This document shows, one piece after another, positions 4,150-63,409 of a DNA stretch of 64,000 bases (the stretch's first letter is position 1; the number at the start of each line of letters is the position of its first letter). Where the stretch lies: assembly GCA_963841825.1 (NCBI GenBank), contig CAWJEL010000024.1:44982-108981 (forward strand), in the 5' to 3' direction. Below the pieces are notes generated by a model. It saw only the letters and a program-made list of their open reading frames with translations, was not told the origin of the DNA and did no database searches. A program made the translations under genes and the position numbers. This DNA comes from an uncultured Chloroflexia bacterium. Its GTDB lineage: Bacteria; Chloroflexota; Anaerolineae; CG2-30-64-16.

Positions 4150-5211
4150 GTGCTGATGAGCCGGAAAACGCAATACGCATCACGTATCACGCATCACGCA
4201 TCCCTCGCCATCATCATCGTCAGCTACAACGTGCGCGAGCTGTTGCGGGCGTGTCTGGAGGCGACGTTCGCCAGCCTGGCGCTCGCGCCGGAGCTGGATG
4301 CGACGGTCTGGGTTGTGGACAACGCCTCAGCCGACGGCAGCGCGGAGATGGTGGCGGCCGAATTTCCCCAGGTGCGCCTCGTCGCCAGCCGGGAGAATCT
4401 GGGCTTTGCCGGCGGGAACAACCTGGCGCTGCGGGCGCTGGGGTTTGGGGAATCGAAGAGCGTGGAGCGTGGAGCGTGGAGCGTGGAGCAAGAGTCGCTA
4501 ACGTCACGCCCCGACCTCGTCCTCCTGCTGAACCCCGACGCGGAGCCGGTAGAAGATGCGGTCGGACAGATGGCACGTTACCTGGTCGCGCACACGGAGA
4601 TTGGCGGAGTCGGCGCTCAGCTTCGTTATCCCGATGGCCGTTTTCAGCACGGGGCGTTTCGTTTCCCCGGCCTGTTCCAGCTCTGGTTTGACCTCTTTCC
4701 GCCCCGGCCGCGGCGGTTGTTGGACTCGCGGCTGAATGGACGCTATGCGCGCACCGCGTATGATAGCGGCCACCCATTCCCGATCGACTTCGCCCTGGGT
4801 GCGGCGCTTATGGTGCGCGGCGCGGCGATCGATGCGGCCGGTCTGCTGGATGAAGGCTACTTCATGTATGCCGAAGAGGTGGACTGGTGCTGGCGGATCC
4901 GCCGTGCGGGCTGGCCGTTCTATTGCGTGCCGTCGGCGGTCGTCATTCATCACGGCGGCGCCAGCACGCGGCAGTTCAGGTCGCAATCATTCGTCAACCT
5001 GTGGCGCAGCCGCCGGCGGTTGTACGACCGGTTCTACGGCCCGAGCCGGCGTTGGCTGGCGGGACGGATCGTGCGGCTGGGCATGTGGGCCGAGGCGCGG
5101 CGGGCACGGGCCGCGGCCGCGCACGGGGAGATCACGCCTGCTGAGCTGGCCGCGCGCGTGGCAGCAGTTCACCAGGTGTCAGACATGTTTGTGAGGTTGC
5201 ATGGGGAGTAA
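4150..5211 (+). CDS. Glycosyltransferase family 2.
   Basis: IIIVSYN, VVDNASADGS, NLGFAGGNN and YAEEVDWCWR motifs. The N-terminal 17 codons and an internal loop are encoded by heptamer arrays (see the repeat features). Confidence 0.8.
   Translation: MLMSRKTQYASRITHHASLAIIIVSYNVRELLRACLEATFASLALAPELDATVWVVDNASADGSAEMVAAEFPQVRLVASRENLGFAGGNNLALRALGFGESKSVERGAWSVEQESLTSRPDLVLLLNPDAEPVEDAVGQMARYLVAHTEIGGVGAQLRYPDGRFQHGAFRFPGLFQLWFDLFPPRPRRLLDSRLNGRYARTAYDSGHPFPIDFALGAALMVRGAAIDAAGLLDEGYFMYAEEVDWCWRIRRAGWPFYCVPSAVVIHHGGASTRQFRSQSFVNLWRSRRRLYDRFYGPSRRWLAGRIVRLGMWAEARRARAAAAHGEITPAELAARVAAVHQVSDMFVRLHGE
4168..4202. repeat. Heptamer array, unit ACGCATC (5 units).
   Basis: ACGCAAT ACGCATC ACGTATC ACGCATC ACGCATC. 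Lies inside the only available 5' reading frame of the GT2 gene (KTQYASRITHHAS). Confidence 0.85.
4458..4489. repeat. Heptamer array, unit GAGCGTG (4.5 units), inside the GT2 coding frame.
   Basis: GAGCGTG x4 plus GAGC, translated as VERGAWSVE. Confidence 0.9.
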
Positions 5212-5968
5212 TGCGGGGCAAGATCAGCTCGCCGCGGTCGTCTTAACCAAGAACGTCGCCGGACACATCACCGACTGCATCGCTACGTTGGGTTTTGCCG
5301 ACCGCGTGGTCGTGTCCGACTCGTTCAGCGCTGATAATACCGTGGCGTTGGCGCAGGTGGCCGGGGCCGAGGTGATGCAGCGGGCGTTCGATAACTTCGC
5401 GGGGCAGCGTAACGCCGCGCTGGAGGCGGTGGAAGCGAACTGGATCTTCTTCGTGGACGCCGACGAGCGTATCCCGCCCGAGCTGGCGGCCGAGGTGCGA
5501 CAGGTGATCGCGGAGCGTTCCGAGGTCGGCTGGTGGGTGCCGCGGCACAATTATATCGCGGGCCAGCGTGTGCGTCACGGGGGGTTCTACCCGGACTATC
5601 AGTTGCGCTTGCTGCGCCGCGATAAGGCCCGCTATGACCCGGCACGGCCGGTACATGAGGTGGTGCTGCTCGACGGGCCGTCCGGTCAGTTGCGCAACGT
5701 GATGATCCACTACAACTACGATGACTGGGCGCAATTTCATGCCAAGCAGGCGCGTTATGCGCGGATCGAGCGCAATATCCTGCGCGAGCGCGGGGTGAAA
5801 CCCTGGCCGCACAAGTTCATCCGACAGCCGCTGCGCGAATTCTGGCGGCGCTATGTTACCCTTCAAGGCTACAAGGATGGCTGGGTGGGACTGAAGCTGG
5901 CCGTCCTCCTGGCCCACTACTACGGCTTCATGCCGCATTGGTACTTGTTCGAAAAACGTGCTGCGTAA
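5201..5968 (+). CDS. Glycosyltransferase family 2.
   Basis: AAVVLTKN...SDSFSADNT...FVDADERIP motifs. Overlaps the previous gene's stop by 11 nt. Confidence 0.7.
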   Translation: MGSNAGQDQLAAVVLTKNVAGHITDCIATLGFADRVVVSDSFSADNTVALAQVAGAEVMQRAFDNFAGQRNAALEAVEANWIFFVDADERIPPELAAEVRQVIAERSEVGWWVPRHNYIAGQRVRHGGFYPDYQLRLLRRDKARYDPARPVHEVVLLDGPSGQLRNVMIHYNYDDWAQFHAKQARYARIERNILRERGVKPWPHKFIRQPLREFWRRYVTLQGYKDGWVGLKLAVLLAHYYGFMPHWYLFEKRAA

Positions 5969-6050
5969 AACGTGAAAACGTGTTGCGTGAGACGTGATCG
6001 TTCTGGACTTTGCGATCACGCATCACGCATCACGTCTCACGCAGCACGCA
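5954..6050. repeat. Two opposed heptamer arrays (ACGTGAN-type, and its complement unit CGCATCA/CGTCTCA) forming an imperfect long hairpin between convergent genes.
   Basis: GCGTGAGACGTGATCG (5985-6000) pairs with CGATCACG...TCTCACGC in 6013-6050. The arms differ by two 7-nt units. Confidence 0.7.
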
Positions 6051-6510
6051 CCCCCACCCGGCGCAAAATCATCGGCATCCCCGCGTCGATCAGCCTCTCC
6101 AGTTCATCTGCCGTGCGCACGTAACCTTCTACCGGCCCGCCGTAGGGGTCGGCGACGTCCCCATGTTTCCCGGACATCTCCGTCAGCAGGTAGACTTTGC
6201 TGAGATGTTGCGGCGCCAGGTAGAACAGCGAGCGCCGGTGCGCCTCCTCCATCACCAGGACGAGATCAGCTTCGCCCAGCAGTGCCGGTGTCAGCAGCCG
6301 CGAGCGGTGGCCGGTCAGATCCATGTCGCGGCCAGCGAGTGTGGTGACGGCGTTCGCGCTGGCCGCATGTCCATCTTCGGCCCAAACGCCGGCTGAGAGC
6401 ACAGCGATCTGGTCTTCCAGGCCGAGCTCGGCGACGCGCCGGCGCAGGATGGCCGCGGCCATGGGCGAACGGCAGATGTTGGCGGTGCAAGCGAAGAGGA
6501 TGGTTTTCAT
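6037..6510 (-). CDS. Low-molecular-weight protein-tyrosine phosphatase.
   Basis: MKTILFACTANICRSPMA gives the C-x5-R-S P-loop, and DVADPYGG gives the Asp loop. Start taken at ATG 6510; the longer ORF runs into a repeat array. Confidence 0.85.
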   Translation of the reverse strand: MKTILFACTANICRSPMAAAILRRRVAELGLEDQIAVLSAGVWAEDGHAASANAVTTLAGRDMDLTGHRSRLLTPALLGEADLVLVMEEAHRRSLFYLAPQHLSKVYLLTEMSGKHGDVADPYGGPVEGYVRTADELERLIDAGMPMILRRVGVRAA

Positions 6511-6570
6511 ATGATTGATCGTGGACGATGGACGATAGACAATGGTCAATGGTCCATCGTCTATCGTCCG
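6511..6570. repeat. Heptamer array of the GGACGAT/GGTCAAT family, with a hairpin-forming end.
   Basis: GGACGAT GGACGAT AGACAAT GGTCAAT GGTC then CATCGTC TATCGTCC, the complement of the first units. It fills the whole hpf-PTP spacer. Confidence 0.85.
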
Positions 6571-6573
6571 TTC

Positions 6574-11237: not shown

Positions 11238-11252
11238 GATTACCTCTGGTTC

Positions 11253-11280
11253 TCGAAGCTCGAAGCTGGAAGCTAGGCGG
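11253..11280. repeat. Heptamer array, unit TCGAAGC/TGGAAGC (4 units), in the ctaD-ctaE spacer.
   Basis: TCGAAGC TCGAAGC TGGAAGC TAGGCGG. Confidence 0.7.
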
Positions 11281-12944: not shown

Positions 12945-13012
12945 GATGATGGACGAATGGACGATGATCCATGGTCGATGGTCAATGGTCAATCGGTCAA
13001 TCGTCAATCGTC
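12945..13012. repeat. Heptamer array of the GGACGAT/GGTCAAT family, in the ctaC-ctaD spacer.
   Basis: GATGATG GACGAAT GGACGAT GATCCAT GGTCGAT GGTCAAT GGTCAAT CGGTCAA TCGTCAA TCGTCC. Confidence 0.85.
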
Positions 13013-15005: not shown

Positions 15006-15138
15006 CGGAGTGCACCTCGGAGCAACAGCGGATTGATCGGCCAGTCACCGCATCTTATCCCAGTTGCGCAGGGGCGTCAAACCGGCTTTGTTTCTTGAAC
15101 CGCGGTGCGTTGGCCGACCTGGATGCGTTGCCAGCGAC

Positions 15139-15167
15139 TTGACTTGCGGTTTGAGTAGGCTTAGAAT
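15139..15167 (+). promoter_or_regulatory. Sigma-70-type promoter, within the conserved module shared with 39512-39592.
   Basis: TTGACT, 17 nt, TAGAAT. Confidence 0.5.
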
Positions 15168-15315
15168 CCCACACAATCGGTGGCCTGTGCGATGCCAGTT
15201 TCTCAACGCCGTGCGCCTATCTTCTCGCTGGCCCCGGCGCCGTCTCGGGAGGCGGCAAGCGTTTGGCGTCTTGGGTGCGGACAGCTCGTGCCCAGTAGAC
15301 CCCAAGGAGTACATC

Positions 15316-15640
15316 ATGACGGTAAAGCGAATGGACAACGTCGGGCATCGTGGTGGAGGACATCGATGCCGCACGATGTGAGTATCTTCAGCCGAACTTG
15401 ATCTCGCAGTCTCGAGGGGCGCGCCCGATGGAAGGAGACTGGGCAGCTGGCGTCACTGGATTGCGCGACGTGCGCGTCGAGATTGCCATGATGCGTACGC
15501 CGGACGGTCACAGCCGGCTCGAGCCGATTCTCGGGACGAGGTTGTGGTCATTTTGCGCGACAAGGGCCGAAAACAGCGATCCGGTGCAACGCACTCGAAG
15601 ACTGCAAAGCGGCTGGATGCTTCACCGATGCGGATTTTAG
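15316..15640 (+). pseudogene. Degraded glyoxalase/VOC-family gene remnant.
   Basis: AAGGAG RBS. MTVKRMDNVG then, across frame changes, IVVEDIDAA ... APMEGDWAAGVTGLRDVRVEIAMMRTPDGHSRLE. Multiple frame breaks and no recognisable C-terminal half. Confidence 0.45.
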
Positions 15641-15799
15641 CATCGATCTGTTTCCGCATAAAATCCGCCGTGCGGGGATATGCGACGTGGATCCGCTACG
15701 TCGGCGCAGTAGGACAAAAACGGAAAACACGATCGGCGGATCTGACGATCCGGCATTCCCCGAAGTCATTCGTTGGGCTGAAAACACATAGGTCAAATA

Positions 15800-16387
15800 G
15801 TGACAAAATCTGCTCTTGATTTGTACGAGAAATACTTCCAAGAAAGGCAATTTGAACGGCTGGATTTGTTTCAAATCATCGCAGACAAATTCAATGTTCA
15901 GCGAGCCTTGTATGCAGGAAGTTTTGTCCATGTCACACCTTCATTTGTTTTCCCCGATGTCGTCTATGTGGACAACGACAAACAAGCAAAGCAATTCTTT
16001 GGCAAGCCTGAAATTTTCAAGTTTATTGCCGAAAGAAAGGTTTATCCACAAGAAGCAAAGGTCTCTTTTCACTTTGCTGATTACAGAAATGGTTTTGATG
16101 AAATGCTTGGTAGTTTCGACTTACTCATTTCTCAATATGCTGGTTTCGTAGGGCAACATTGCAAGCAATATCTAAAAACGGGCGGCTTACTTTTGGCAAA
16201 CAATAGTCATGGTGACGCAGGCATGGCAGCAATTGATGATGATTATCAGTTATTAGCGGTTTTCTCTGTAAAAAATGAGAAACACAGAATCAGCGTAAAT
16301 AATCTTGATGAATATTTTGTTCCAAAGTCACAAACTGAGATAACGAAGGAGTATCTCGAAAAACTGCAGAAAAGGCATTGGCTATAA
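15800..16387 (+). CDS. Hypothetical protein with a Rossmann-like, possibly methyltransferase, fold. Strongly AT-rich foreign gene.
   Basis: About 40% G+C by hand count of two 60-nt lines, against about 70% in the neighbouring cox region. 195-aa ORF with LYAGSFVHVTPSFVFPDVVYVDND ... FDLLISQYAG. Confidence 0.5.
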   Translation: MTKSALDLYEKYFQERQFERLDLFQIIADKFNVQRALYAGSFVHVTPSFVFPDVVYVDNDKQAKQFFGKPEIFKFIAERKVYPQEAKVSFHFADYRNGFDEMLGSFDLLISQYAGFVGQHCKQYLKTGGLLLANNSHGDAGMAAIDDDYQLLAVFSVKNEKHRISVNNLDEYFVPKSQTEITKEYLEKLQKRHWL

Positions 16388-16645
16388 AAAGATTGCGAGT
16401 GTATATTTATTCCAAAAGGTTCAGTAAGGCGGGCTTGAGTCTTGAAAACGATGGTGTCTTCCAGTCCTTCAGCCCAACAAAGACTGCACTGGACGCTGGG
16501 ATACGGTGTGCTCTTCAAGCATTTTGCTGGCTTCGAGTCTTTCTCTGCTCACGAGCAGAATCCAGCACTCGCCCCAGCGCCAGTAACACGAGCCATGAAG
16601 CGTCAACCATTGGAAGCGCGTAAGATCGCTGTCTTAAGGAGGACA

Positions 16646-17203
16646 ATGATGGATCGCCAGTCCGGATACTTCACGCTGAGCCTGGAGTCACTCAGGGTCA
16701 TTGGGGGCTGGGCCGCGGATTGCGCTGAGAGGGCGCTGTCGGTATGTGAGACGCACCCTGATTCAGATTCGCGGCCCCGTGCGGCGATCGCGGGCATCCG
16801 GGAGTTCGCGGGCGGGGGAAAGCGCACAGCCCGGTTGCGCACCCTTGCCGTGGAGGCGAATGCCGCTGCGCGTGAGATCGGCGATCCTGCGGCGGCGGCC
16901 GCTGCTCGTGCGGCGGGCCTTGCGGCGGCCAGCGCCTACACGCATCCGTTGGCGGATGTCCATCAGACAAAGCACATCGTCGGGCCAGCGGCCTATGCAG
17001 CACTGGCTCTTGAGCTCGACCACGCAGGCGATCCAAGTGTCGCCGACGCAGAGGTCCGCTGGGCAATCGAGCACGCCCCCTCGGAAGCGCGCCAGGTCTT
17101 GCTTCAGATGCCCGCTCGTCGGGCCGGCAAGAGTCGATTAGACACGCTCCTCTACGAGCTGGATGCGGGCATCCGCGCTCGAACCTTGCCGCGAGACGCC
17201 TGA
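16646..17203 (+). CDS. Hypothetical alpha-helical protein. Resembles the family often labelled putative immunity protein (Imm5-like), from memory.
   Basis: AAGGAGG RBS six nt before ATG 16646. Ala-rich helical repeats (RPRAAIAGIREFAGGG...AAAREIGDPAAAAAARAAG...HPLADVHQTKHIVGPAAYAA). Confidence 0.5.
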   Translation: MMDRQSGYFTLSLESLRVIGGWAADCAERALSVCETHPDSDSRPRAAIAGIREFAGGGKRTARLRTLAVEANAAAREIGDPAAAAAARAAGLAAASAYTHPLADVHQTKHIVGPAAYAALALELDHAGDPSVADAEVRWAIEHAPSEARQVLLQMPARRAGKSRLDTLLYELDAGIRARTLPRDA

Positions 17204-17293
17204 CCCGCGCTTCCACACAGACGGCGCGCCGCGTGCGGCAGACTCGCGTTCAAGGCGCTCGCGCGCCGCGGGTGAAGCGTAAACACGTTGGCC

Positions 17294-17805
17294 GCCTGGC
17301 AATTGTGATCAAAGCTGCTGAAAATCCAGACCATCCGCGCGATGATTTCTACCAGAGTGTTTGCCGCACACACATTCAACAAACGGGAGGAAATCCTCAT
17401 GAGCCAAGGCAAGAGCACCACCGCGAACGATGAGAACGTCCAAGGGATTCACGGACGAGGAACGCGCTGCGATGAAGGAGCGCGCCCAAGAGCTGAAGGC
17501 GGCCGCGCGCGCGAACAAGAACAAGGCGGATGGGGAAAGCGACGTGCTCGCTAAGATCGCCGAGATGGAGGAACCGGATCGCGCTATGGCCACGCGGCTC
17601 CATGAGATCATCAAGGCCAGCGCACCGGCCCTTGCGCCGAAAACCTGGTACGGGATGCCCACGTATGCCAAGGATGGCAAGGTCATCTGCTTCTTCCAGG
17701 CTGCGAGCAAGTTCAACACGCGGTACGCGACGTTCGGCTTCCAGCACGATGCAAATTTGGACGACGGCGACCTGTGGCCGACCGCGTTCGCGCTGAAGGC
17801 GTTGA
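17294..17805 (+). repeat. Direct repeat copy 1 (0.51 kb): DUF1801 gene plus 105 nt upstream.
   Basis: Aligns base for base with 19651-20163, with scattered substitutions (roughly 5-7% by eye). Confidence 0.9.
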
Positions 17806-17993
17806 GCATCGTTTTTGACCATTGGCGGTTGAGCCGGTGGCGGGCGGCTGACGCCCTTCGTTACGCAGCCGCTGAGGACGGATATCGAAGGATTTCATGC
17901 GTTACCGGACTTGGGCTACCCGGGGCGCTGAACGCGAGGCCGCGAGGCGCAGAGTCGGCAGTTCCGCAGATCGCGAGCGCCACGGCGTTGTGA
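17399..17993 (+). pseudogene. DUF1801 (YdhG-like) paralogue, copy 1. Frame break at 17444-17446, and 3'-truncated at 17805, after which it reads on into unrelated sequence.
   Basis: GGGAGG RBS plus ATG 17399 gives [16 protein letters not shown]. The family sequence [11 protein letters not shown]...[18 protein letters not shown] continues in the +1 frame. Homology to copy 2 stops at 17805. Confidence 0.6.
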
Positions 17994-18069
17994 GGGAAAT
18001 CCGCCAGCACAGAAGCAGCCTGGCTCGGCATCACCCACATTAGTTTTGGATGAGAGTGTAAGGAGGCGG

Positions 18070-19086: not shown

Positions 19087-19245
19087 GCGCCTCATCGAAG
19101 TTCGCGTCCAACAGACCTCTTGATGCAGATGGGGCGGCGACAAACGGCGGCCTAACAACTTGCTGGAGCAGACCCGCCTGGCTTGGCGCGATAATCTGAA
19201 CGTGACTTGACCGGGCCGCTCGGATCGAGGCCGTTAGTATCTCAT

Positions 19246-20216: not shown

Positions 20217-20278
20217 GAAGCGATCTCGCCACCTATATATCGAGGCGACACCGCACTTTGTTTCGGAGGGTCAACAGC

Positions 20279-20870: not shown

Positions 20871-20893
20871 TTCGATAGCAGATGAGAAGCACT

Positions 20894-53166: not shown

Positions 53167-55562
53167 ATGACTTTCAATCCTGTCGCCTTCCTTGACTCCT
53201 TGCGCCGCAAGCGCGGCTACGCGGGCCAACTGGCGCATGTTCAGACTTTGCCTGCGCGGCGGCCGCGCTACGGACACTTGAACGCGCCTTTGAGCCCGCC
53301 GGTGGAACGGGCGTTGGCTGCAACCGGCGCCGAGCGGCTCTACACGCACCAGGCTGAGGCGATCAACGCCGCGCTGGCGGGCCAGAACGTCGTCGTCGCT
53401 ACCTCGACGGCCAGCGGCAAGACGTTGTGCTTCAACGTGCCGGTGCTGGAGGCGCTGGCACGTGACCCATTGGCGCGCGCCCTGTACATCTATCCGACCA
53501 AGGCGCTGGCGCAGGATCAGCTCGGCAAATGGAACGCGCTGGTCAAGGCCGCGGGCGAGGGCATCATCAACCCGCTGGCCGCGACCTACGATGGCGACAC
53601 GCCCCAGGCCGCGCGCAGCCGCATCCGCCGCAGCGCGCGCGTGCTGCTGACCAACCCCGACATGCTCCACGCCGGCATCCTGCCGAACCACCCGCTCTGG
53701 GCCGAGTTCTTCCGCCACCTGCGCTATGTCGTGATCGACGAGGCGCACACCTACCGCGGCGTCTTCGGCTCGCAGGTCGCGTGTGTGCTGCGCCGGTTGC
53801 GGCGAGTGTGTGGGGTGTACCAGGCATCAGGCGTCAGGCGTCAGGAGCCAGCAGTTTCCAGTTTCCAGTTTCCAGCTTCCAACCTCGTCTTCATCGCCAC
53901 TTCGGCCACCATCGCCAATCCGGCCGAGCACTTTGAGTTGCTGACCGGGCTCACCGCCAAGGTGATCAGCGACGACGGCTCGCCGCACGGGCCGCGCACC
54001 TTTGCCCTGTGGAATCCGCCGTTCGTGGATCGCGCCAAGAAGGCGCGGCGCAGCGCGAACGGCGAGGCCACCGATCTGTTCACCGCGTTGGTGGGGCAGG
54101 GCGTGCGCACGATCGCCTTCACCCGCGCGCGTGATCGCCGAGCTGCTGCTGCGGTATGCGCGTGAGGGGCTGCGGAAGACGCACCCTGAATTGGTCGAAC
54201 GGATCGCCGCGTACCGGGCCGGCTATCTGCCGGAGGAACGCCGGCGCATCGAGCGCGAGCTGTTCGGCGGCCGGCTGCTGGGCGTCACCGCGACCACCGC
54301 GCTGGAGCTGGGTATCGACGTGGGCGGGCTCGACGCCGCGCTGCTGGTGGGTTATCCGGGCACGATCGCCAGCCTGTGGCAGCAAGCCGGCCGCGCGGGC
54401 CGCGGCAAAGATCCGTCGCTCGCGCTGCTGATCGCGCTGGGGGATCCGCTCGACCAGTACTACATGCGCCACCCGGATGAGCTGCTGGGGAAGCCGCACG
54501 AGAACGCGCTGCTGGACCCGGATAACGTCTACATCCTCCGGCGCCACCTGCCGTGCGCGGCGCACGAAACCCCGCTGCGGGTAGCCGGCGAAGATCTGGC
54601 AGGTTCGCCGGACCCGGCAGGTCTCAACGACGACGAGAAGTTGTTCGGCCCCGGCTTTGTGGAGGCCATGATCGGCCTGGAGAACGATGAGATCGTGCGT
54701 TACACGGGCGAGAAGTGGGTGTATGCGCGCCGCGACTATCCGGCGGAGGGGTTCAGCCTGCGCGACGCCCAGGGCGAGCGGTTCGCGGTGCTGAACGCGG
54801 CTGACAACTACCGGATGATCGAGGAACTGAACGCCAGCAGCGCGCCGATGCGGGTGCATCCCGGCGCGGTCTACTTGCACCAGGGCGAGGCGTTCCTGGT
54901 GCAGGAGTTCAACCCGAGCCTGCGTCATGCGATCGTTTCACCCACCACCGGCGATTCCTACACACATCCGCGCGAACTCAACGACGTGCAGATTGTCCGT
55001 TCACTGCGCCATCGTGTGCTGAGAACGACCGATGCCTACTGGGGCCGGGTGCGCGTGCGCAGCCAGGTGATCGGCTATCGGCGGCTGCGGCAGTTCTCCG
55101 AGGAAGTGCTGGAGGACGTGCCGCTGGAGATGCCGTTGGCCGAGTATGAAACAGCCGCCGTGTGGTGGGATCTGCCCGACGATCTGCCGCGCGAGCTGGC
55201 GGGCCGCGGGCTGGATTTCCTGGGCGGCATCCATGCAGCCGAGCACGCGGCCATCGGCATCCTGCCGCTCTTCGCCATGTGCGACCGGTGGGACATCGGC
55301 GGGCTGAGCACCCCGCGCCACCCCGACACGGACGCGGCGCAGATCTTCATCTACGACGGCTTTCCGGGCGGCGTGGGGATCGCCGAGAAGGGGTTCGAGC
55401 TTGCTGCCGGAGCTGTGGGCCGCGACGCTGGACGCGATCCGCGGCTGCCCCTGCGGCGACGGCTGCCCAAGCTGCGTCCAAAGCCCGAAATGCGGGAACT
55501 TTAACAGCCCGCTGGACAAGCGGGCCGCGGAGATCCTCCTCCAGCGGCTGTTAGGCAGGTAA
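53167..55562 (+). pseudogene. DEAD/DEAH-box helicase with a C-terminal DUF1998 Zn-finger domain (MrfA/Hrq-like). Two frame breaks (about 54124-54131 and 55401-55404) plus an in-frame heptamer insertion.
   Basis: GKT (TASGKTLCF), DEAH (VVIDEAHTY) and SAT (TSATIANP). TIAFTRAR continues in frame +1 as VIAELLLRY. GFEL continues in frame +2 as LPELWAATLDAIRGCPCGDGCPSCVQSPKCGNFN...LLGR, stop at 55560-55562. Confidence 0.85.
53821..53883. repeat. Composite heptamer array (CAGGCGT-type x5, then TTCCAGT-type x4): 63 bp, in frame inside the helicase gene.
   Basis: CAGGCAT CAGGCGT CAGGCGT CAGGAGC CAGCAGT TTCCAGT TTCCAGT TTCCAGC TTCCAAC. Translated QASGVRRQEPAVSSFQFPASN, between the DEAH and SAT motifs. 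Confidence 0.9.
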
Positions 55563-56486: not shown

Positions 56487-58514
56487 ATGCATGATGGTGG
56501 TTGGTGGTCGTTTATCCGCTACGATGAGAAGCAAGATCGTCCCCAGGTGAGTTGGGCGCTCGTGCGACGAGCGGCCGCGTACGGCCGGCCCTACGCTGGC
56601 AAGATCGCGCTCATGCTGGCGCTGATCCTCGCGATCACGCTACTGAACCTCATCCCGCCCCTGTTGACACGCAACCTGATCGACTACGCGCTGCCGCAGG
56701 GGGATGTCGTGCGTCTGACCCTGTTGGCGCTGGCGATGGTCGCGGTGGCGCTCCTCAGCGGGCTGCTCGGCGTGGGCCAGCGTTTTCTCAGCGCGATCGT
56801 CGGCGAAGGGGTGATCTACGATCTGCGGGTGGCGCTCTACGGCCATTTGCAGCACATGTCGCTGCGCTTCTTCACCCACACCAAGACGGGCGAGCTGATG
56901 TCGCGGCTCAACAACGACGTCGGCGGCGCGCAGCGGGCGGTCACCGGCACCTTTGTGGACCTGGTGACGAACGTCGTGACGCTGGTCTTCGTGCTGGCGA
57001 TCATGCTGCGGCTGGAGTGGCGGCTGACGCTGCTGGCCATCGTGGTGCTGCCGCTCTTCCTGATCCCGGCGCGCGTCCTGGGCCGGCGCGTGCGCGGCGT
57101 CGTGCGCGAGCAGATGATGTATAACGCTGAGATGAACGCCATGATGGAAGAGACGCTCAACGTCAGCGGCGCGCTGCTGGTGAAGCTGTTCGGGCGGACA
57201 TTGAGCGAGGTGATGCGCTTCAGCGAGCGCGCGGCCCGCGTGCGCCGCGCCGGTGTGCGGCAGGCGTTCCTGATGCGTTGGTTCTTCCTGACGGTGGGGT
57301 TGATCAGCGCGGTCGGGACGGCGTTGGTGTTTTGGGCCGGCGGCATGTTGGTGCTCCAGGGCACGTTCACCCTCGGCACGGTGGTCGCGTTCACCGCGTA
57401 CCTGGGGATGCTCTACGGCCCGCTGTCCGCGCTGACCAACGCCCGGGTCGATTTTGCCACGTCGATGGTCAGCTTCGAGCGGGTGTTCGAAGCGCTCGAT
57501 CTGCCTGCGGAGATTTCGGAGCCAGCGGACGCGCTGCGCTTGAGCTCGGTGCAGGGCTGGGTCCAATTCGAGGGGGTCTCGTTCAGCTATCAACCGGGCG
57601 AAAACGTGCCCGGCGCGGCCGCAGGGCTGGCTGAGGTGGCGCGCTTCGGTCGGGGACGCGGCGGATCGCTGCCGCCCTTGTCGCAGGAGAGCGGCGCGCT
57701 CAAGATCGAGCGGCCGAAAAGCGAGCGTACCGACGCGTCGTCAGCCGACGATCTCCCGCCGGCCGCCGACGGCGACACGCGTTATGCGCTGTGCGACGTG
57801 AGCTTCGAGGTCAAGCCGGGGCGTCTGGCCGCGCTGGTAGGCCCGAGCGGCGCGGGCAAGACCACCGTGACCTATCTGCTGCCGCGGCTCTACGATCCGA
57901 CCGCCGGCGCGATCCGCATCGACGGGCACGACATCCGGGAACTGACGTTGGACACGCTGGCTAGCCAGATCGGCATGGTGACGCAGGAGACGTATCTGTT
58001 CAACGACACGATCCGGGCCAACCTGCTCTACGCGCGGCCCGACGCGACCGACGAGCAGATCGTGGCCGCGTGCCGGGCGGCGAACATCCATGACTTCATC
58101 GTCGACCTGCCGGATGGCTACGACACGATCGTCGGCAACCGCGGCTACCGTCTTTCCGGGGGCGAGAAGCAGCGGATGGCGATCGCCCGGGTCATCCTCA
58201 AGGATCCGAAGATCCTGGTGTTGGACGAGGCCACGTCATCGCTCGACAGCCAGTCGGAGGCGCTGATCCAGGAGGCGTTGGTGCGGATCATGGTGGACCG
58301 GACGAGTCTGGTGATCGCCCACCGGCTCAGCACCATCCTGTCTGCGGACACGATCCTGGTGCTGGATCATGGCCGCTTGGTGGAGCAGGGCACCCACGCC
58401 GAGTTGCTGGCGCGCGGCGGGTTGTACGCCGATTTGTACGAAACGCAGTTCCGGCACGGACGGATTGATCTGGCTGCCTCCGGCGAGATCGTATCCCCAT
58501 ACGACGTGACCTGA
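56487..58514 (+). CDS. ABC exporter, fused permease/ATPase (MsbA-like), with a roughly 60-aa low-complexity insertion at the start of the NBD.
   Basis: Six-TM domain, Walker A GPSGAGKTT, signature LSGGEKQR, Walker B ILVLDEATS. Confidence 0.9.
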   Translation: MHDGGWWSFIRYDEKQDRPQVSWALVRRAAAYGRPYAGKIALMLALILAITLLNLIPPLLTRNLIDYALPQGDVVRLTLLALAMVAVALLSGLLGVGQRFLSAIVGEGVIYDLRVALYGHLQHMSLRFFTHTKTGELMSRLNNDVGGAQRAVTGTFVDLVTNVVTLVFVLAIMLRLEWRLTLLAIVVLPLFLIPARVLGRRVRGVVREQMMYNAEMNAMMEETLNVSGALLVKLFGRTLSEVMRFSERAARVRRAGVRQAFLMRWFFLTVGLISAVGTALVFWAGGMLVLQGTFTLGTVVAFTAYLGMLYGPLSALTNARVDFATSMVSFERVFEALDLPAEISEPADALRLSSVQGWVQFEGVSFSYQPGENVPGAAAGLAEVARFGRGRGGSLPPLSQESGALKIERPKSERTDASSADDLPPAADGDTRYALCDVSFEVKPGRLAALVGPSGAGKTTVTYLLPRLYDPTAGAIRIDGHDIRELTLDTLASQIGMVTQETYLFNDTIRANLLYARPDATDEQIVAACRAANIHDFIVDLPDGYDTIVGNRGYRLSGGEKQRMAIARVILKDPKILVLDEATSSLDSQSEALIQEALVRIMVDRTSLVIAHRLSTILSADTILVLDHGRLVEQGTHAELLARGGLYADLYETQFRHGRIDLAASGEIVSPYDVT

Positions 58515-58542
58515 TCGGATGCAAATCGGGTCAGGCAAAAAT

Positions 58543-58586
58543 ACGTCCCGCACGAGGCGTTTTTGAGGCGCAATGTGCAGGACGTT
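58543..58586. terminator. Degenerate homologue of the 61036 hairpin, between the ABC gene and hydrolase copy 1.
   Basis: ACGTCCCGCAC...GTGCAGGACGT, with mismatches and an internal TTTTT. Confidence 0.35.
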
Positions 58587-58616
58587 CTGGGCGCAAGTCA
58601 GCCACCGCTGACGCTG

Positions 58617-60002
58617 CTACCGGAACACCACCGGCAGCCAGGTTCGGAAGGTTCGCACCACTGGCGTTCGGGTGGCCGTGGGTGTCACAGTCGGCGTCAT
58701 GGTCGGCGCCACAATATGCGTTGCGGTCGGCGTCACGGTCGGCGTCACGGTGGACGTTGGTGTTTGGGTCGTGGTGGCAGTCACCGTGACTGTTGCGGCA
58801 GGTGTGGGCACCGGGTTCTCGATGCGCTGCTGCAACAGTTGCAGGCCCGCGATGAGCTCAGAAAGGGTGAAATTGCAGTGTCCGAAGCGATCCACCCTGA
58901 TGAGATCATGGCGAAAGGTCAGGTTGTGCGCGACGACCTTGTCTCGGTATAGCGTCTGGTGCCAGTAGGGTACCGTTTGGTCGTTGGTGGTATGGATTGT
59001 CACCAGGGGGACCATAGGGCGCCCCGCGGTCTGATAGTGTGCATCGATCTCCGCCCATGCGGCGGGGCTGCCGACATAACGCTGCACACCGGCATTCAAC
59101 GCGGCATCGTTCAGTGAGCCGGCATAGGCACGGTCGTGGTTGTCGAATGGCTGCCCGCCCAGTTTGATGACCGCGTCGTTGGTCGCCATCACGTTGTACC
59201 ACAACTCCTGGCTGATGCCCTCGGCAATGGTCGCTGGGACGCTCAGATCGTAGGGCACGCCCGTGACATTTAGGAGTTGTGTCACGCTGATGGCGCTGCC
59301 CGGCGTCGCGATGACCGGCGCCACGGTCGTGGTGTAGTAGGTCGGCCAGTTGGCGATCAGCGGTTCGGGGATATTAACTGCACTGCCCGGGATCAGGCCG
59401 GGAAAGAAGTAATCGAACACGATCCGGAAGTCGGCCACATAGTTAGTGTGCCGCCGGAAGTCGCCGATGGGGCCGCACGCGGCCAACCCTCCGTTGAAGA
59501 CGGCCGGATACTGTTCTGTGGCCAGGGTGGTGATCAGCCCACCTTCCGACACACCGACCAGGATCACACGCTTGAGCGTCGGGTGCTGGGCTCTGAAGAT
59601 GCTCACCAGGTCCACCAGGTCGGGCAAACCCTGCCTGATCGCCAACCCGTTAACGCTGTAACTGGTGGTGGCGAAGGCGTAGCCGAGCAAATTGGCCGCG
59701 TCCGGGATATAGGTATCGCCCAGACGAAGCTGGTCCTCTGGGATGCCGACCGGCTCGTTCGGGGCCACGTAGCCGTGGGCGTAGACGAGCAGGTCGCCGT
59801 TCCAGGCGAACGCCGGCATACAGATGCGATACTTGGCCCCACTGGCTTGTGTCCCATCCGGAGCACACGCCATTGGCGCCAGTGCCGCGTCCGGATCGTC
59901 GGGCGCCGCACCTGGGCCAGCGGGTGCTGCGGCCAATCCGCTGCTGGCGAGCATACTGACAAGCAGAACGAACGCGAGCCCCAGCCCGAACGTTTTGTGC
60001 AT
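58617..60002 (-). CDS. Secreted alpha/beta-hydrolase-fold protein with a C-terminal Thr/Pro-rich tail, duplicate copy 1.
   Basis: Signal peptide and a GVSEGG nucleophile elbow. The tail is PTPAATVTVTATTTQTPTSTVTPTVTPT... ending RTWLPVVFR. Confidence 0.7.
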   Translation of the reverse strand: MHKTFGLGLAFVLLVSMLASSGLAAAPAGPGAAPDDPDAALAPMACAPDGTQASGAKYRICMPAFAWNGDLLVYAHGYVAPNEPVGIPEDQLRLGDTYIPDAANLLGYAFATTSYSVNGLAIRQGLPDLVDLVSIFRAQHPTLKRVILVGVSEGGLITTLATEQYPAVFNGGLAACGPIGDFRRHTNYVADFRIVFDYFFPGLIPGSAVNIPEPLIANWPTYYTTTVAPVIATPGSAISVTQLLNVTGVPYDLSVPATIAEGISQELWYNVMATNDAVIKLGGQPFDNHDRAYAGSLNDAALNAGVQRYVGSPAAWAEIDAHYQTAGRPMVPLVTIHTTNDQTVPYWHQTLYRDKVVAHNLTFRHDLIRVDRFGHCNFTLSELIAGLQLLQQRIENPVPTPAATVTVTATTTQTPTSTVTPTVTPTATHIVAPTMTPTVTPTATRTPVVRTFRTWLPVVFR

Positions 60003-60338
60003 GCTGTGCTCCTTTTGCAGGGTGACAGATAACCAAAAAGCTTGATACGCTCACCTTATCACGTTCGGCGAGATGTGTCAACGGTCAAACGCGTCGCCGC
60101 GTTCGCGAATCACGGATGCATTTCAATCCTGGGGCGAATCGTGCCCTGAGCTTGTCAGTCTCCAAAGGGCTCAGCGAGCGTGTCAGTCGCCAAATTGAAG
60201 CACACCCACGAATCGCGAATTTTCGGCTGCGTTCTGTGCTCTCATCCCTTCGTTGAGACAAATGTACCTGACAGATGGGTGACTTGCTTGTATCATACAC
60301 GCGTGATATCAAAGCGTTGAACAAGATGGAGGGACACG

Positions 60339-60935
60339 ATGCAAGCAACGGATATTCTCATGCAAGAACACGAAGTGATCCTGCGCGTCATTGCGACGCT
60401 CGAAGTCGAGGCAGACCGTCTGGCCGAGGGGCAAGAAGTGCGTCCAGGTTTTTTCCTGGATGCGGCTGACTTCATCAAAGGTTTCGCCGACGGCTGTCAT
60501 CACAAGAAAGAAGAGGGCGTCCTGTTCGAGGCGATGGCCGCGGCTGGCCTGCCCAAACAGACCGGCCCGATCGCCGTGATGTTGACAGAACATGAGCAGG
60601 GCCGCGCCTTCACGCGCGGGATGTGGGAGGCGGCCAACCGGTTAGCGGCAGGCGATAGCACGGCCCGCGACGCAGTGGTCAGCAATGCCCGCGGCTACGC
60701 TGCGCTCTTGCGCCAGCATATCCAGAAGGAGAACGGCATCCTCTTCCCGTTGGCCGATCAGGTGATCCCAGTTGCCAGGCAGGCGCAGGTCGCCGACGAT
60801 TTCGAGCGCGTCGAGCACGAGGACACCGGCGAAGGGGTACATGCGAAATACCTGGTGCTGGTCGAGGTGCTCGTGGAGCAGGGGACTCACCCTGAGCTGC
60901 TGGCGCGTCGGCGGCCTCTATGCCAATCTATATGA
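60339..60935 (+). CDS. Hemerythrin (HHE cation-binding) domain protein, copy 1. Its 3' end is chimeric with an ABC-transporter 3' fragment.
   Basis: MQEHEVI, GCHHKKEE, MLTEHEQG and RQHIQKEN. After GVHAKYL the sequence switches to VLVEVLVEQGTHPELLAR, homologous to the ABC gene tail. Confidence 0.7.
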   Translation: MQATDILMQEHEVILRVIATLEVEADRLAEGQEVRPGFFLDAADFIKGFADGCHHKKEEGVLFEAMAAAGLPKQTGPIAVMLTEHEQGRAFTRGMWEAANRLAAGDSTARDAVVSNARGYAALLRQHIQKENGILFPLADQVIPVARQAQVADDFERVEHEDTGEGVHAKYLVLVEVLVEQGTHPELLARRRPLCQSI

Positions 60936-61008
60936 AACGCAGTTCCGGCATGGGCCGCAAGGTCTGGCTGCCTCCGGCCAGATCGAATCCTCGTACGTCG
61001 AATTCTGA
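60851..61008 (+). pseudogene. Remnant of the last about 50 codons of an ABC exporter gene, at the duplication junction.
   Basis: LVEQGTHPELLAR / GGLYANLYETQFRHG...AASGQIESSY aligns with 58355-58514 (LVEQGTHAELLARGGLYADLYETQFRHG...). It contains an internal frame break. Confidence 0.6.
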
Positions 61009-61035
61009 TAAGCTACGGATCGAGCCAGGCAACAA

Positions 61036-61081
61036 GCGTCCCGCGCATTGCGCTCTTGCGGCGCAATGCGCGGGACGCTTT
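61036..61081. terminator. Bidirectional stem-loop terminator between the ABC remnant and hydrolase copy 2.
   Basis: GCGTCCCGCGCATTGCGC, a 7-nt loop, then GCGCAATGCGCGGGACGC (18-bp perfect stem) followed by TTT. Confidence 0.6.
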
Positions 61082-61109
61082 GGGCGCGGGTCAGCCACCG
61101 CTGACGCTT

Positions 61110-62495
61110 CTACCGGAGCACCACCGGCAGCCAGGTTCGGAAGGTTCGCACCACTGGCGTTCGGGTGGCCGTGGGTGTCACAGTCGGCGTCATGGTCGGC
61201 GCCACAATATGCGTTGCGGTCGGCGTCACGGTCGGCGTCACGGTGGACGTTGGTGTTTGGGTCGCGGTGGCAGTCACCGTGACTGTTGCGGCAGGTGTGG
61301 GCACCGGGTTCTCGATGCGCTGCTGCAGCAGTTGCAGGGCTGTGATAAGCTCAGAAAGGGTGAAATTGCAGTGTCCAAAGCGATCTATCCTGATCAGATC
61401 ATGCCGATAGGTCAGGTTGTTTGCGACGACCTTGGCGCGATACAGCGTCTGGTGCCAGTAGGGTACTGTCTGGTCGTTGGTGGTGTGGCTGGTCACCAGC
61501 GGGACCCTCGGACGCCCGGCGGTCTCATAGTGTGCGTCGATCTCCGCCCACGCGGCCGGGCTGCCGCTGTAACGTTGCACGCCGGCATTCAGCGCGGTAT
61601 CGTTCAGTGAACCTGTGTAGACACGGTCGTGGTTGTCGAACGGCTGCCCGCCCAGTTTGGCGACCGCGTCGTTGGTCGCCATGACGTTGTACCACAACTC
61701 TTGGCTGATGCCCTCGTTGATGGTCGCCGCGTCGCCGGGGATGTAGGGCACCCCTGTGACATTCAGGAGTTGTGTCACGCTGATGGCGCTGCCCGGCGCC
61801 GCGATGACGGGCGCTACGGTCGTGGTGTAGTAGGTCGACCAATTGGCAATCAGCGGTTCAGGGATACTGACCGCACTGCCCGGGATCAGGCCGGGAAAGA
61901 AGTAATCAAACACGACCCGGAAGTCGGCCACATAGTTGGTATGCCGCCGGAAGTCGCCGATGGGCCCGCACGCGGCCAGACCGCCGTTGAAGACGTCAGG
62001 ATACTGCTCGGTCGCCAGGGTGGTGATCAGCCCGCCCTCCGATACGCCGATGAGTATCACGCGTTTGAGCGTCGGATGTTGGGTTCTGAAGATGTTCACC
62101 AGGTCCACCAGGTCGGGCAACCCCTGCTTGACTGCCAATCCGTTGACGCTGTAACTGGTGGTGGCGAAGGCGTAGCCGAGCAAATTGGCCGCGTCCGGGA
62201 TATAGGTGTCGCCCAGATGAAGCTGGTCCTCTGGGATGCCGACCGGCTCGTTCGGGGCCACGTAGCCGTGGGCGTAGACGAGCAGGTCGCCGTTCCAGGC
62301 GAACGCCGGCATACAGATGCGATACTTGGCCCCACTGGCTTGTGTCCCATCCGGAGCACACGCCATTGGCGCCAGTGCCGCGTCCGGATCGTCGGGCGCC
62401 GCACCTGGGCCAGCGGGCGCTGCGGCCAATCCGCTGCTGGCGAGCATACTGACAAGCAGAACGAACGCGAGCCCCAGCCCGAACGTTTTGTGCAT
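61110..62495 (-). CDS. Secreted alpha/beta-hydrolase-fold protein, duplicate copy 2.
   Basis: Collinear with 58617-60002, with only scattered substitutions in 461 aa. Same GVSEGG and TP-rich tail, ending RTWLPVVLR. Confidence 0.7.
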   Translation of the reverse strand: MHKTFGLGLAFVLLVSMLASSGLAAAPAGPGAAPDDPDAALAPMACAPDGTQASGAKYRICMPAFAWNGDLLVYAHGYVAPNEPVGIPEDQLHLGDTYIPDAANLLGYAFATTSYSVNGLAVKQGLPDLVDLVNIFRTQHPTLKRVILIGVSEGGLITTLATEQYPDVFNGGLAACGPIGDFRRHTNYVADFRVVFDYFFPGLIPGSAVSIPEPLIANWSTYYTTTVAPVIAAPGSAISVTQLLNVTGVPYIPGDAATINEGISQELWYNVMATNDAVAKLGGQPFDNHDRVYTGSLNDTALNAGVQRYSGSPAAWAEIDAHYETAGRPRVPLVTSHTTNDQTVPYWHQTLYRAKVVANNLTYRHDLIRIDRFGHCNFTLSELITALQLLQQRIENPVPTPAATVTVTATATQTPTSTVTPTVTPTATHIVAPTMTPTVTPTATRTPVVRTFRTWLPVVLR

Positions 62496-62830
62496 GCTGT
62501 GCTCCTTTTGCAGGGTGACAGATAACCAAAAAGCTTGATACGCTCACCTTATCACGTTCGGCGAGATGTGTCAACGGTCAAACGCGTCGCCGCGTCGCGA
62601 ATCACGGATGCATTTCAATCCTGGGGCGAATCGTGCCCTGAGCTTGTCAGTCTCCAAAGGGCTCAGCGAGCGTGTCAGTCGCCAAATTGAAGCACACCCA
62701 CGAATCGCGAATTTTCGGCTGCATTCTGCGCTCTCATCCCTTCGTTGAGACAAATGTACCTGACAGATGGGTGACTTGCTTGTATCATACACGCGTGATA
62801 TCAAAGCGTTGAACAAGATGGAGGGACACG

Positions 62831-63383
62831 ATGCAAGCAACGGATATTCTCATGCAAGAACACGAAGTGATCCTGCGCGTCATTGCGACGCTCGAAGTCG
62901 AGGCAGACCGTCTGGCCGAGGGGCAAGAAGTGCGTCCAGGTTTTTTCCTGGATGCGGCTGACTTCATCAAAGGTTTCGCCGACGGCTGTCATCACAAGAA
63001 AGAAGAGGGCGTCCTGTTCGAGGCGATGGCCGCGGCTGGCCTGCCCAAACAGACCGGTCCGATCGCCGTGATGTTGACAGAACATGAGCAGGGCCGCGCC
63101 TTCACGCGGGATGTGGGAGGCGGCCAACCGGTTAGCGGCAGGCGATAGCACGGCCCGCGACGCAGTGGTCAGCAATGCCCGCGGCTACGCTGCGCTCTTG
63201 CGCCAGCATATCCAGAAGGAGAACGGCATCCTCTTCCCGTTGGCAGATCAGGTGATCCCAGTTGCCAGGCAGGCGCAGGTCGCCGACGATTTCGAGCGCG
63301 TCGAGCATGAGGACACCGGCGAAGGGGTACACGAGAAATACCTGGCGCTGGCCGAGGCGCTGGAGCGGGAAGCGGGGGCGTGA
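62831..63383 (+). pseudogene. Hemerythrin domain protein, copy 2. Native 3' end, but a 2-bp deletion near 63105-63109.
   Basis: Copy 1 has TTCACGCGCGGGATG and copy 2 has TTCACGCGGGATG. The reading frame resumes as MWEAANRLAAGD... in the next frame and ends EKYLALAEALEREAGA. Confidence 0.7.
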
Positions 63384-63409
63384 CGAATGACGAATGACGA
63401 ATGACCAGC
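63382..63409. repeat. Heptamer array, unit GACGAAT (3 units plus a degenerate one), overlapping the hemerythrin copy-2 stop.
   Basis: GACGAAT GACGAAT GACGAAT GACCAGC. Confidence 0.85.

Follow-up and report, generated by a model that had tools for sequence, protein, structure and literature searches.

Arrays of tandemly repeated seven-nucleotide units crowd the gene junctions of the 64-kb stretch of DNA analysed here (hereafter the window), which comes from an uncultured member of the Anaerolineae (Chloroflexota). These arrays arise in situ from local sequence, typically where a stop codon is followed by the next ribosome-binding site; protein loops and termini that tolerate them are further sites of origin. 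Their copy numbers differ between species. They homogenise their units through concerted evolution and duplicate blocks of units in register; they shift between units of 7 and 8 nt, and persist at the same gene junctions across species despite turnover of the units. Within genes they are filtered to remain in frame, and frequently an array is paired with an inverted copy of itself. On balance we favour, with some reserve, the view that they are heptanucleotide simple-sequence repeats of the kind described as short tandemly repeated repetitive (STRR) sequences or long simple-sequence repeats (LSSRs), probably made locally by slippage and template switching and maintained by concerted evolution. 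The origin of the DNA follows from its proteins: CtaD is 81-87% identical to proteins of Anaerolineae/Anaerolineales metagenome-assembled genomes (MAGs) and at most 63% identical to those of cyanobacteria, and ProA is 93-95% identical to its counterparts on two metagenome contigs. An index of exact protein sequences returned no match for the hpf, GNAT and ProB proteins.

Period, placement and turnover of the arrays

Tandem Repeats Finder (TRF) and an independent period detector both recovered an array at every place named in an earlier note on this DNA. Measured against 100 dinucleotide-preserving shuffles and counting non-overlapping arrays of at least 2.8 copies, the window holds 13 arrays of period 7 where 0.21 are expected (shuffle maximum 2), so that the control which the note had proposed places the excess far above chance. 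Period 6 is represented by two arrays (0.27 expected), period 8 by three (0.29 expected) and period 9 by one, all periods other than 6, 7 and 8 being at chance. Period 7 likewise predominates over its neighbours in 1.27 Mb of related Chloroflexota loci (designated by L numbers), with 57 arrays as against 26, 20 and 29 for periods 6, 8 and 9, or 36 as against 5, 13 and 11 outside coding-like open reading frames (ORFs); array density in the window is about four times that in these loci. Because arrays of periods 6 and 8 are present (Table), the seven-nucleotide period is strongly preferred rather than strict, as the note had held it to be, and the array it had listed as GGTTGAG proves to be the period-6 array TTGAGG x7.8. 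Long simple-sequence repeats are defined as tandem repeats of 5-11-nt units that exceed in length and number what composition predicts, and the period-7 arrays, which reach 49 copies, conform to this.

Placement relative to genes is equally regular. Each intergenic array in the window starts between -19 and +6 nt from the upstream stop codon: the first unit includes that stop at proB, ctaD, the DUF1349 gene and the hemerythrin-like gene, and the array supplies the last codons of the DUF218, PTP and HD-like genes. At the other end the array stops 4-45 nt upstream of the next start, sparing the ribosome-binding site. When the window and the related loci are pooled, a coding-like ORF pointing into the array ends at -21 to +10 nt in 26 of 56 array loci, compared with 2.2 expected from random placement, and stop-to-array offsets cluster at -3 to +7. 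Relatives free of arrays have spacers of 9-25 nt (for example "TGAggaataccATG" in L083), which indicates that the arrays are expansions of operon spacers originally 10-25 nt long and explains why they seem to fill spacers entirely. The earlier note had given hpf-PTP, ctaC-ctaD, ctaD-ctaE and proB-proA as operon spacers so filled, and they are, with the genes confirmed by Pfam; its assignment of the arrays to intergenic spacers is right for the majority, the remainder comprising four arrays within genes, and several arrays overlap the upstream stop or last codons. A stop triplet within the heptad does not serve as a three-frame barrier to translation, since 11 of 28 stop-adjacent units carry one on the mRNA strand and letter shuffles predict 11.7.

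Comparison of the same junctions in relatives reveals how arrays originate and change. At the 3' end of the DUF218 gene, the C-terminal codons of the ancestral gene, as seen in L003 (...GGGGCTGGAGGGCTGA), gave rise to the unit CTGGAAG of the window, and L004 carries TTGGAGG x6 at the corresponding place. Downstream of proA, comparison between species yields GAAGGAT x9.6 in the window, GAAGGAT x5.6 in L084 and GAAGGAC x5.4 in L081, in the last of which one substitution has been homogenised throughout the array. The ctaD-ctaE spacer contains related TGGAAxx/CCTCCAA heptads in L002, L003, L004 and L006. In the ctaC-ctaD spacer, the window has GATTGAC heptads that include one 8-nt unit, and L003, L010 and L011 have period-8 arrays (CGCTGATT, GATTTGCC), from which it follows that the period itself drifts. 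The longest array of the window, that of the DUF1349 gene, holds a 119-bp (17-unit) higher-order repeat within its 343 bp and thus grew via in-register block duplication.

Between proB and proA, a GACGANN-family array with a complementary second arm occurs in the window, L081, L090 and L092/L093. Unrelated heptads occupy the same spacer in L085 (CCAGCAC), L094 (GGGTAAT), L101 (GATAGAG) and L103 (GTTATCA with TACCGAT), and other palindromic repeats do so in L082, L086, L108 and L112; the minimal spacers of the close relatives L083, L106 and L113 contain neither an array nor any other element. Alignment of the GACGANN spacers from the window, L081, L090 and L092 gives a consensus hairpin of 23 pairs, six of which have changed on both sides (compensatory changes).

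Several further observations concern this neighbourhood. Relatives without heptads in the proB-proA or proA-downstream spacers (L082, L083, L086, L108, L112, L115) carry other repeated palindromes, among them GTGCCCGGCAC-type motifs, a 47-nt repeat in L086 and 'gggataccatcccgccctacaac' hairpins, and hairpin-forming repeats of various kinds seem either to be drawn to this junction or to be kept there. On the activated-sludge contig L101, the (GATAGAG)n repeat upstream of proA (150-290) is followed by TCCGCAC x3. The 10-kb contig L103 (WBZL01005854.1) has eight period-7 arrays, mostly in adjacent pairs (e.g. GAGATTG/CAATCTC), at about four times the density of the window, and one of them adds four codons to the C-terminus of ProB.

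Arrays take two forms: direct-only (before GNAT, before ctaE and AGACAGG x49) and inverted pairs, in which an array is followed by its reverse complement and the spacer consequently becomes a long palindrome with heptad-periodic arms. Such pairs form long hairpins whose stems are heptad-periodic with periodic bulges, and whose stability relative to shuffles corresponds to z-scores of -3.7 to -6.1; the ctaD-ctaE inverted pairs of L003 and L006 fold at -39 and -32 kcal/mol. Defined as a two-unit reverse-complement copy with at most two mismatches in 14, within 90 nt, an inverted partner accompanies 36 of the 72 period-7 arrays in the pooled Chloroflexota loci (reversed and complement controls, 0/72 and 6/72) and six of the 29 in cyanobacterial loci fetched with CtaD. 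This hairpin architecture, like the arrays within genes, was missed by the earlier note. Strand asymmetry lends no support to selection on RNA: in only four of nine spacers does the sense strand exceed the antisense in stability, so complementarity is equally good at the level of DNA, which fits a DNA-level origin. Nor do the hairpins pass for intrinsic terminators, as they lack U-tracts and no predicted terminator coincides with any array.

Within genes, the same repeats are accommodated in frame. In the first of the two GT2 glycosyltransferase genes (GT2a), GAGCGTG x4.6 encodes part of a 19-residue insertion, ALGFGESKSVERGAWSVEQ, that is not found in the L078 homologue; between the ACGCATC array of this gene and the conserved IIIVSYN motif there is no alternative start codon. 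In L086 the helicase orthologue (78% identity) has, at the same loop and again in frame, heptads of other sequence (CAGTACG x5 and GCGAATC-type), implying that heptads arise wherever they are tolerated and that selection keeps the total length in frame.

As to the units themselves, the earlier note had described them as unrelated and their sequence as free, and neither description was borne out. Ten pairs of units lie within one mismatch of one another (any rotation or strand) where 2.8 are expected (P<0.0005); this pair count is the only test used, single-linkage clustering having been set aside on the ground that it chains unrelated units. GACGA-heptads occur at 6.5, 13.0, 44.2 and 63.4 kb, TGGTC-heptads adjoin three of these, and heptads of the CACGC and CCAG types also recur at separate loci. 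The hpf-PTP and ctaC-ctaD spacers have a common composite layout, (GACGAUN)2-(GACCAUN)n-(AUCGUCC)2, and L092 has GACGA/TGGTC heptads at two loci. At least eight mutually unrelated unit families are nevertheless packed into the 64 kb.

Origin of the arrays

The earlier note had argued for a length-measuring generator and against the spread of one mobile sequence. The latter half stands, because first units contain the upstream stop, the DUF218 unit comes from ancestral codons, and orthologous spacers differ in unit and copy number, all of which fits an in-situ process with a preferred unit length; the fixed period and free sequence on which the argument drew do not. In the process we envisage, replication slippage or unequal exchange would create and resize arrays, units near 7 nt being intrinsically favoured. 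Mismatch repair may leave loops of about this size uncorrected: insertion loops above ~4 nt escape MutS-dependent repair, and longer units slip less readily. Intramolecular template switching, acting on quasi-palindromes, would produce the inverted partner and keep the two arms matched. Selection would act purely as a filter, obliging arrays to stay in frame within genes and to leave the ribosome-binding site intact, and recently acquired DNA would have yet to accumulate arrays. Effects on mRNA, such as intercistronic hairpins and purine tracts with multiple Shine-Dalgarno (SD) sites, are likely by-products, perhaps tuned by copy number. Mrazek et al. (2007), as represented in papers citing them, proposed that a 7-nt length corresponds to the stretch of DNA in contact with the polymerase (PMC4692102, PMC4679880).

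Certain findings sit uneasily with this account. The GACGANN hairpin between proB and proA has been kept, with its compensatory changes, in four species at 81-93% ProA identity, and such retention could reflect selection instead of templated correction; most lineages, moreover, keep some hairpin-forming repeat in that spacer. Recurrence of unit families between loci exceeds chance and is not predicted by purely local seeding, and the evidence from this genome itself covers 64 kb only.

It is the conservation of the proB-proA hairpin and of its position that lends most weight to the idea that the arrays, and inverted pairs in particular, are selected intercistronic RNA elements, a reading that we hold to be unlikely, if worth serious consideration. 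Hairpins with heptad stems placed after a stop codon would stabilise the upstream cistron, mark positions for processing or break translational coupling; direct arrays rich in purines would serve as ribosome standby or multi-SD sites, and slippage would confer a tunable stem length or number of sites. Beyond the paired changes at proB-proA and the many lineages with a structured repeat there, it can appeal to hairpins far more stable than shuffles, to arrays set tight against the stop codon with the ribosome-binding site spared, to SD-like cores in arrays just before starts (AGGAGAC x49, GAAGGAT x9.6, and the GGAG-rich arrays directly upstream of starts in L085 and L123) and to the precedent of STRR hairpins between hupS and hupL in filamentous cyanobacteria (PMC2670836). 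What it leaves unaccounted for is that sense is no more stable than antisense, that arrays are devoid of U-tracts or terminator-like signatures, that L083, L106 and L113, close relatives all, do with minimal spacers and no element, and that the same repeats occur within genes and at convergent gene ends, where such a function does not apply. More ambitious, and in our estimation less probable again, is the proposition that stop-anchored heptad-stem hairpins constitute a conserved, slip-tunable intercistronic control element common to Chloroflexota and Cyanobacteria, the 7-nt unit reflecting a specific molecular ruler and not generic slippage; that ruler would be a heptad-reading RNA- or DNA-binding protein, or a property of the replisome common to both phyla. 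If this were true, a natural experiment for identifying the ruler would be at hand in the orthologous series, where one junction shows both 7- and 8-nt periods, unit sequences that differ, and arms that match each other.

Dispersal of a few small mobile or copy-pasted elements built of heptads, akin to repetitive extragenic palindromes (REPs) or miniature inverted-repeat transposable elements (MITEs) and spread by a transposase or gene conversion, would account for the composite layout common to hpf-PTP and ctaC-ctaD, for GACGA/TGGTC heptads at four loci in the window and two in L092, and for unit similarity above chance; transposition has indeed been suggested by Subirana and Messeguer for the single (GATAGRA)n family of Chloroflexus (PMC6749651). 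Yet unrelated families are too many, first units take in local stop codons and ancestral coding sequence, orthologous sites show gradual drift of the unit instead of presence or absence of a fixed element, and neither target-site duplications nor terminal repeats nor a transposase (in Pfam scans) were seen near the arrays. Given local seeding a mobile origin is unlikely, decidedly so in our view, even if the return of some unit families at separate loci is accounted for only in part. The within-gene arrays invite comparison with contingency loci, in which one unit (7 nt) gained or lost would make the GT2 glycosyltransferase or the helicase phase-variable, off in one state and on in the other: glycosyltransferases are classic phase-variable genes, non-triplet repeats lie in both the N-terminus and a loop of one GT2 protein beside a second GT2 gene, and heptad copy number differs between relatives. 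We give this hardly more credit than transposition, if as much, as the arrays are short (3.6-4.6 units), the helicase loop keeps its heptads in frame at 78% identity in the manner of a tolerated insertion, and the intergenic majority would be left unexplained. Least credible by far is that the arrays are artefacts of assembly or sequencing. At least four single-base frameshifts in conserved genes suggest that exact copy numbers may be slightly off, but artefact is excluded as a source of the arrays by their presence at matching junctions in independent assemblies from other samples and assemblers (L081, L084, L090, L092/L093, L003, L004, L006, L086). Slippage and template switching at sites of local origin thus remain the explanation that we prefer.

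Relation to known heptamer repeats

The earlier note knew of the STRR sequences of heterocystous cyanobacteria as the only comparable system, whereas heptamer repeats have been reported in many bacteria, including Xanthomonas, Nostoc, Beggiatoaceae, Geobacter and Chloroflexus aurantiacus. According to the papers that cite their survey, Mrazek, Guo and Shah (2007) found heptanucleotides to be the most abundant class of long simple-sequence repeats in most bacterial genomes and explained them by slippage (PMC4692102, PMC4679880). As there summarised, those repeats share with the arrays of the window a unit length of 5-11 nt, with 7 commonest, a mostly intergenic location, a phylogenetically scattered occurrence and a proposed origin in slippage; the survey predates Anaerolineae genomes, and stop-codon anchoring, turnover at orthologous sites and inverted pairing are absent from the features that the citing papers summarise.

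STRR sequences were described in filamentous, heterocystous cyanobacteria by Mazel et al. in 1990 (cited in PMC4692102) as heptads; they fall into several families and are able to form hairpins in operon spacers, for which a function has been proposed in the case of hupS-hupL (PMC2670836). The window's arrays are like them in their 7-nt units, in having several families per genome, in their tandem arrangement in non-coding and operon spacers and in the hairpins formed by opposed arrays, and hairpins of this type in operon spacers occur at hpf-PTP and proB-proA in the window and at ctaD-ctaE in L003 and L006. The cyanobacterial loci we fetched contain 29 arrays of period 7, with diverse units, and at most 11 of any other period. 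They differ in host, Cyanobacteria as opposed to Chloroflexota (Anaerolineae), in the lower frequency of inverted pairing (21% as opposed to 50% in Chloroflexota loci) and in that four of the window's arrays lie within genes. The units STRR1-3 are CCCCAGT, TTGGTCA and CAACAGT; no unit of the window equals any of these, the nearest being ATGGTCA, which matches TTGGTCA at six of seven positions. The window's arrays resemble STRRs in looks and working, fall outside them by host and unit sequence, and fit the broader class of heptanucleotide long simple-sequence repeats.

Other systems share some features and lack others. The intergenic GGGAATC repeats of Xanthomonas and GGGGAYT repeats of Nostoc (PMC4692102) are heptads between the same genes in related species, vary extensively in length and sequence, include some inverted pairs and are in places internal to operons (pecE-pecF); each genome has one G-rich, quadruplex-prone family, whereas the window has many, most of them not prone to quadruplex formation. 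Chloroflexus aurantiacus, of the same phylum, has 22 satellites derived from (GATAGRA)n scattered over its genome (PMC6749651), and the L101 proB-proA spacer carries (GATAGAG)n, but that single dominant family has been read as transposed (PMC6749651), in contrast to the many locally seeded families here. The TAACTGA repeats of Beggiatoaceae (PMC4679880) and the heptanucleotide elements of Geobacter metallireducens (PMC2700814) are also short arrays, mostly intergenic and near start codons (in Geobacter within genes too), although each family consists of one conserved heptamer in two to six copies, proposed as a regulatory motif, and the window's units are diverse. REPs are fixed-sequence palindromes mobilised by RAYT transposases. 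Like them and the related bacterial interspersed mosaic elements (BIMEs), the window's inverted pairs are stable hairpins just downstream of stop codons in operons and are dispersed over the window; unlike them, their arms are built of tandem heptads that vary in sequence and length, and with respect to REP-type dispersal most units are locus-specific, the GACGA/TGGTC family being found at four loci within 64 kb. General Pfam scans of the ~50 window proteins, which included no search aimed at RAYT, turned up no RAYT (IS200/IS605-like) transposase.

Cyanobacterial heptamer repeats have been on record since 1990, and those of many bacterial genomes since 2007; the literature we searched contains no description of them for Anaerolineae, which are now added as a new lineage. 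To the existing picture we add stop-codon anchoring, 50% inverted pairing, period drift from 7 to 8 nt between orthologous sites, and the presence of heptads in corresponding loops of orthologous proteins. It is a solid finding that provides a useful comparative handle on the question of why seven bases, and by itself reveals no new mechanism. The comparative series does constrain models, in favour of in-situ generation with templated matching of the arms and against a mobile element or a sequence-specific motif. Any effect of the arrays on operon mRNA is unproven, and proB-proA, ctaC-D-E and hpf-PTP offer concrete spacers in which to ask about such a role. There is a practical side as well, in that short-read assemblies break at arrays and spacers are lengthened by them, with consequences for MAG quality and gene calling, start codons being mis-called within arrays. 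Short-read contigs do terminate within heptad arrays or hairpins (the end of L102, 1322-1388, and the start of L091), meaning that arrays fragment short-read MAGs and are under-counted there.

Features of the window and its array-free island

Pfam assigns the genes flanking the arrays to the arrangements hpf then LMW-PTP, SURF1-ctaC-ctaD-ctaE, proB-proA-GNAT, DUF218 then HD-like gene, and DUF1349 then a CarboxypepD_reg protein, together with two GT2 genes and an MrfA/Hrq1-like helicase. Several start codons in the mechanical ORF list fall inside arrays; homology and SD motifs place the true starts at ATG 6510 (PTP), ATG 12902 (ctaD) and ATG 44314 (proA). Rfam at its gathering threshold gave no match, and there is no tRNA anywhere in the window.

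Table. Tandem arrays and hairpins of the window (x, copies of the unit; MFE, minimum free energy in kcal/mol; z, stability relative to shuffles)
Feature	Position	Strand	Setting	MFE	z
ACGCATC x4	4175-4202	+	first ~18 codons of GT2 glycosyltransferase gene GT2a (ATG 4156 or GTG 4150, to 5211)
GAGCGTG x4.6	4458-4489	+	in-frame insertion within GT2 domain of GT2a
Hairpin	5979-6048		between convergent GT2b (stop 5968) and LMW-PTP (stop 6037)	-43.1	-5.6
ATCACGC x5	6015-6050	not assigned	right arm of hairpin 5979-6048, left arm being inverted copy gcgtgagacgtgat; array forms last 4 PTP codons and stop
GGACGAT / AATGGTC / ATCGTCC heptads	6522-6569	-	fill hpf-PTP operon spacer 6511-6573; hairpin	-29.6	-5.5
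CTCGAAG x3.3	11252-11274	-	ctaD-ctaE spacer; direct array, AGCUUCS x3.3 on mRNA strand
GGACGAT > ATGGTCN > ATCGTCA heptads	12948-13012	-	ctaC-ctaD spacer; start 5 nt after ctaC stop (13018)
GTCACCGT x5.8 (period 8)	30243-30302	-	overlaps stop of HD-like gene 30300-30891
TTGAGG x7.8 (period 6; mRNA CCUCAA)	30902-30948	-	ends 10 nt upstream of ATG 30891
CCAGTTT / TTCCAGC heptads	30964-31035	-	overlap last 6 codons and stop (31017) of DUF218 gene
AGACAGG x49, 343 bp	35515-35857	+	from TAG stop of DUF1349 gene to 14 nt before next ATG (35872)
GACGATA x3.9	44220-44246	+	proB-proA spacer; starts in proB stop, followed by 18-nt centre
Hairpin, bulged	44227-44292		proB-proA spacer	-37.9	-4.3
CATGGTC x4.4	44265-44295	+	proB-proA spacer, after 18-nt centre; proA ATG 44314
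GAAGGAT x9.6	45586-45652	+	proA-GNAT spacer; direct array ending 4 nt before GNAT ATG (45657)
CAGGCGT x3.6	53821-53845	+	in-frame insertion in MrfA/Hrq1-like helicase, between DEAH and TSAT motifs
CAGTTTC x4.3	53852-53881	+	second heptad array of same helicase insertion, between DEAH and TSAT motifs
TGACGAA x3.6	63381-63405	+	first unit is TGA stop of hemerythrin-like gene; GGGAG-ATG start ~24 nt later

Read on the mRNA strand, the hpf-PTP spacer is (GGACGAU)(AGACGAU)-(GACCAUU)2-(AUCGUCC)2, forming a hairpin with a 16-bp stem, and the ctaC-ctaD spacer runs GACGAUU x2, GACCGAUU (the 8-nt unit), GACCAUN x3 and then AUCGUCC-type units, with the ctaD start preceded by the SD sequence GAAGGAG. The ctaD-ctaE array begins in the real ctaD stop (TAG 11273-11275) and ends 14 nt before the ctaE ATG (11237), and the DUF218 heptads read CUGGAAG / CUGGAAA / CGGGUUG. 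Purine-rich direct arrays carry an SD-like core (AGGAG, AAGGA) in each unit: every AGACAGG unit has AGGAG or AGGGG, and the GAAGGAT array consists of purines plus U only, is unstructured (MFE 0) and ends so close to the GNAT start that its last units must supply the ribosome-binding site. The 343-bp array was also considered as a coding repeat, one frame being open across it, and rejected, as the DUF1349 domain is complete before the stop and the array lies outside both flanking Pfam domains.

As the earlier note had it, there is no array between 15.05 and 29.3 kb, TRF finding none in this lower-G+C block (15050-29300), which has the HD-like gene on one side and SURF1 on the other. In the relatives L003, L004, L007, L008 and L069 only ~1 kb separates these two genes, and the genes of the block are without homologues at the corresponding site; by this comparison the block, which encodes small accessory enzymes, is an inserted island. 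Were arrays as frequent there as elsewhere in the window (~11 array loci in 50 kb), its 14 kb would hold about three loci, and their absence is mildly significant (Poisson P ~0.04) and fits a slow endogenous build-up of arrays in resident DNA. The second gap claimed in the note, 36-43 kb, is interrupted by a single weak GC-rich TRF match within a gene (42118-42137), is otherwise free of arrays and is not significant. The island comprises ~18 small accessory genes, nearly all on the + strand, with families that include Imm5-like, DUF1801, DUF389, ABM, RibD_C, two SDRs, DUF6790, PanB-like, Zn-ADH, DinB, LigB, SAM methyltransferase and NmrA-like.

Frameshifts split conserved genes into overlapping ORF pairs at ~11697 (ctaD), ~30652-30677 (the HD-like gene), ~54130 (helicase) and ~63110 (copy 2 of the hemerythrin-like gene). 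Of the two read base by base, the one in ctaD adds a base to a GGG run (GCCGGGCATC) and the one in the helicase has lost a base from a (CG)n run. All four resemble leftover indel errors of long-read assembly rather than true pseudogenes; the copy numbers in the Table may for this reason be slightly inexact.

A few minor features adjoin the arrays. On the mRNA strand the ctaC-ctaD heptads read (GAT)TGAC, giving five tandem TTGAC (-35-like) hexamers, one of which has a weak sigma-70-like promoter score (12992..12964, 9/12), probably by chance. Alongside the ATCACGC hairpin that separates the convergently oriented GT2b and PTP genes is a 22-nt direct repeat, AAAACGTGCTGCGTAAAACGTG x2, with AAAACGTG sub-repeats (5953-5997), which puts short U-runs after the hairpin on the minus strand. 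Finally, a tandem duplication of ~2.35 kb (58355-60700 and 60850-63190, 92.5% identity) contains in each copy a gene for a 461-residue alpha/beta-hydrolase, with an internal period-12/36 repeat, and most of the hemerythrin-like gene; similarity between the copies is lost short of the 3' end, and the TGACGAA array follows copy 2 only.

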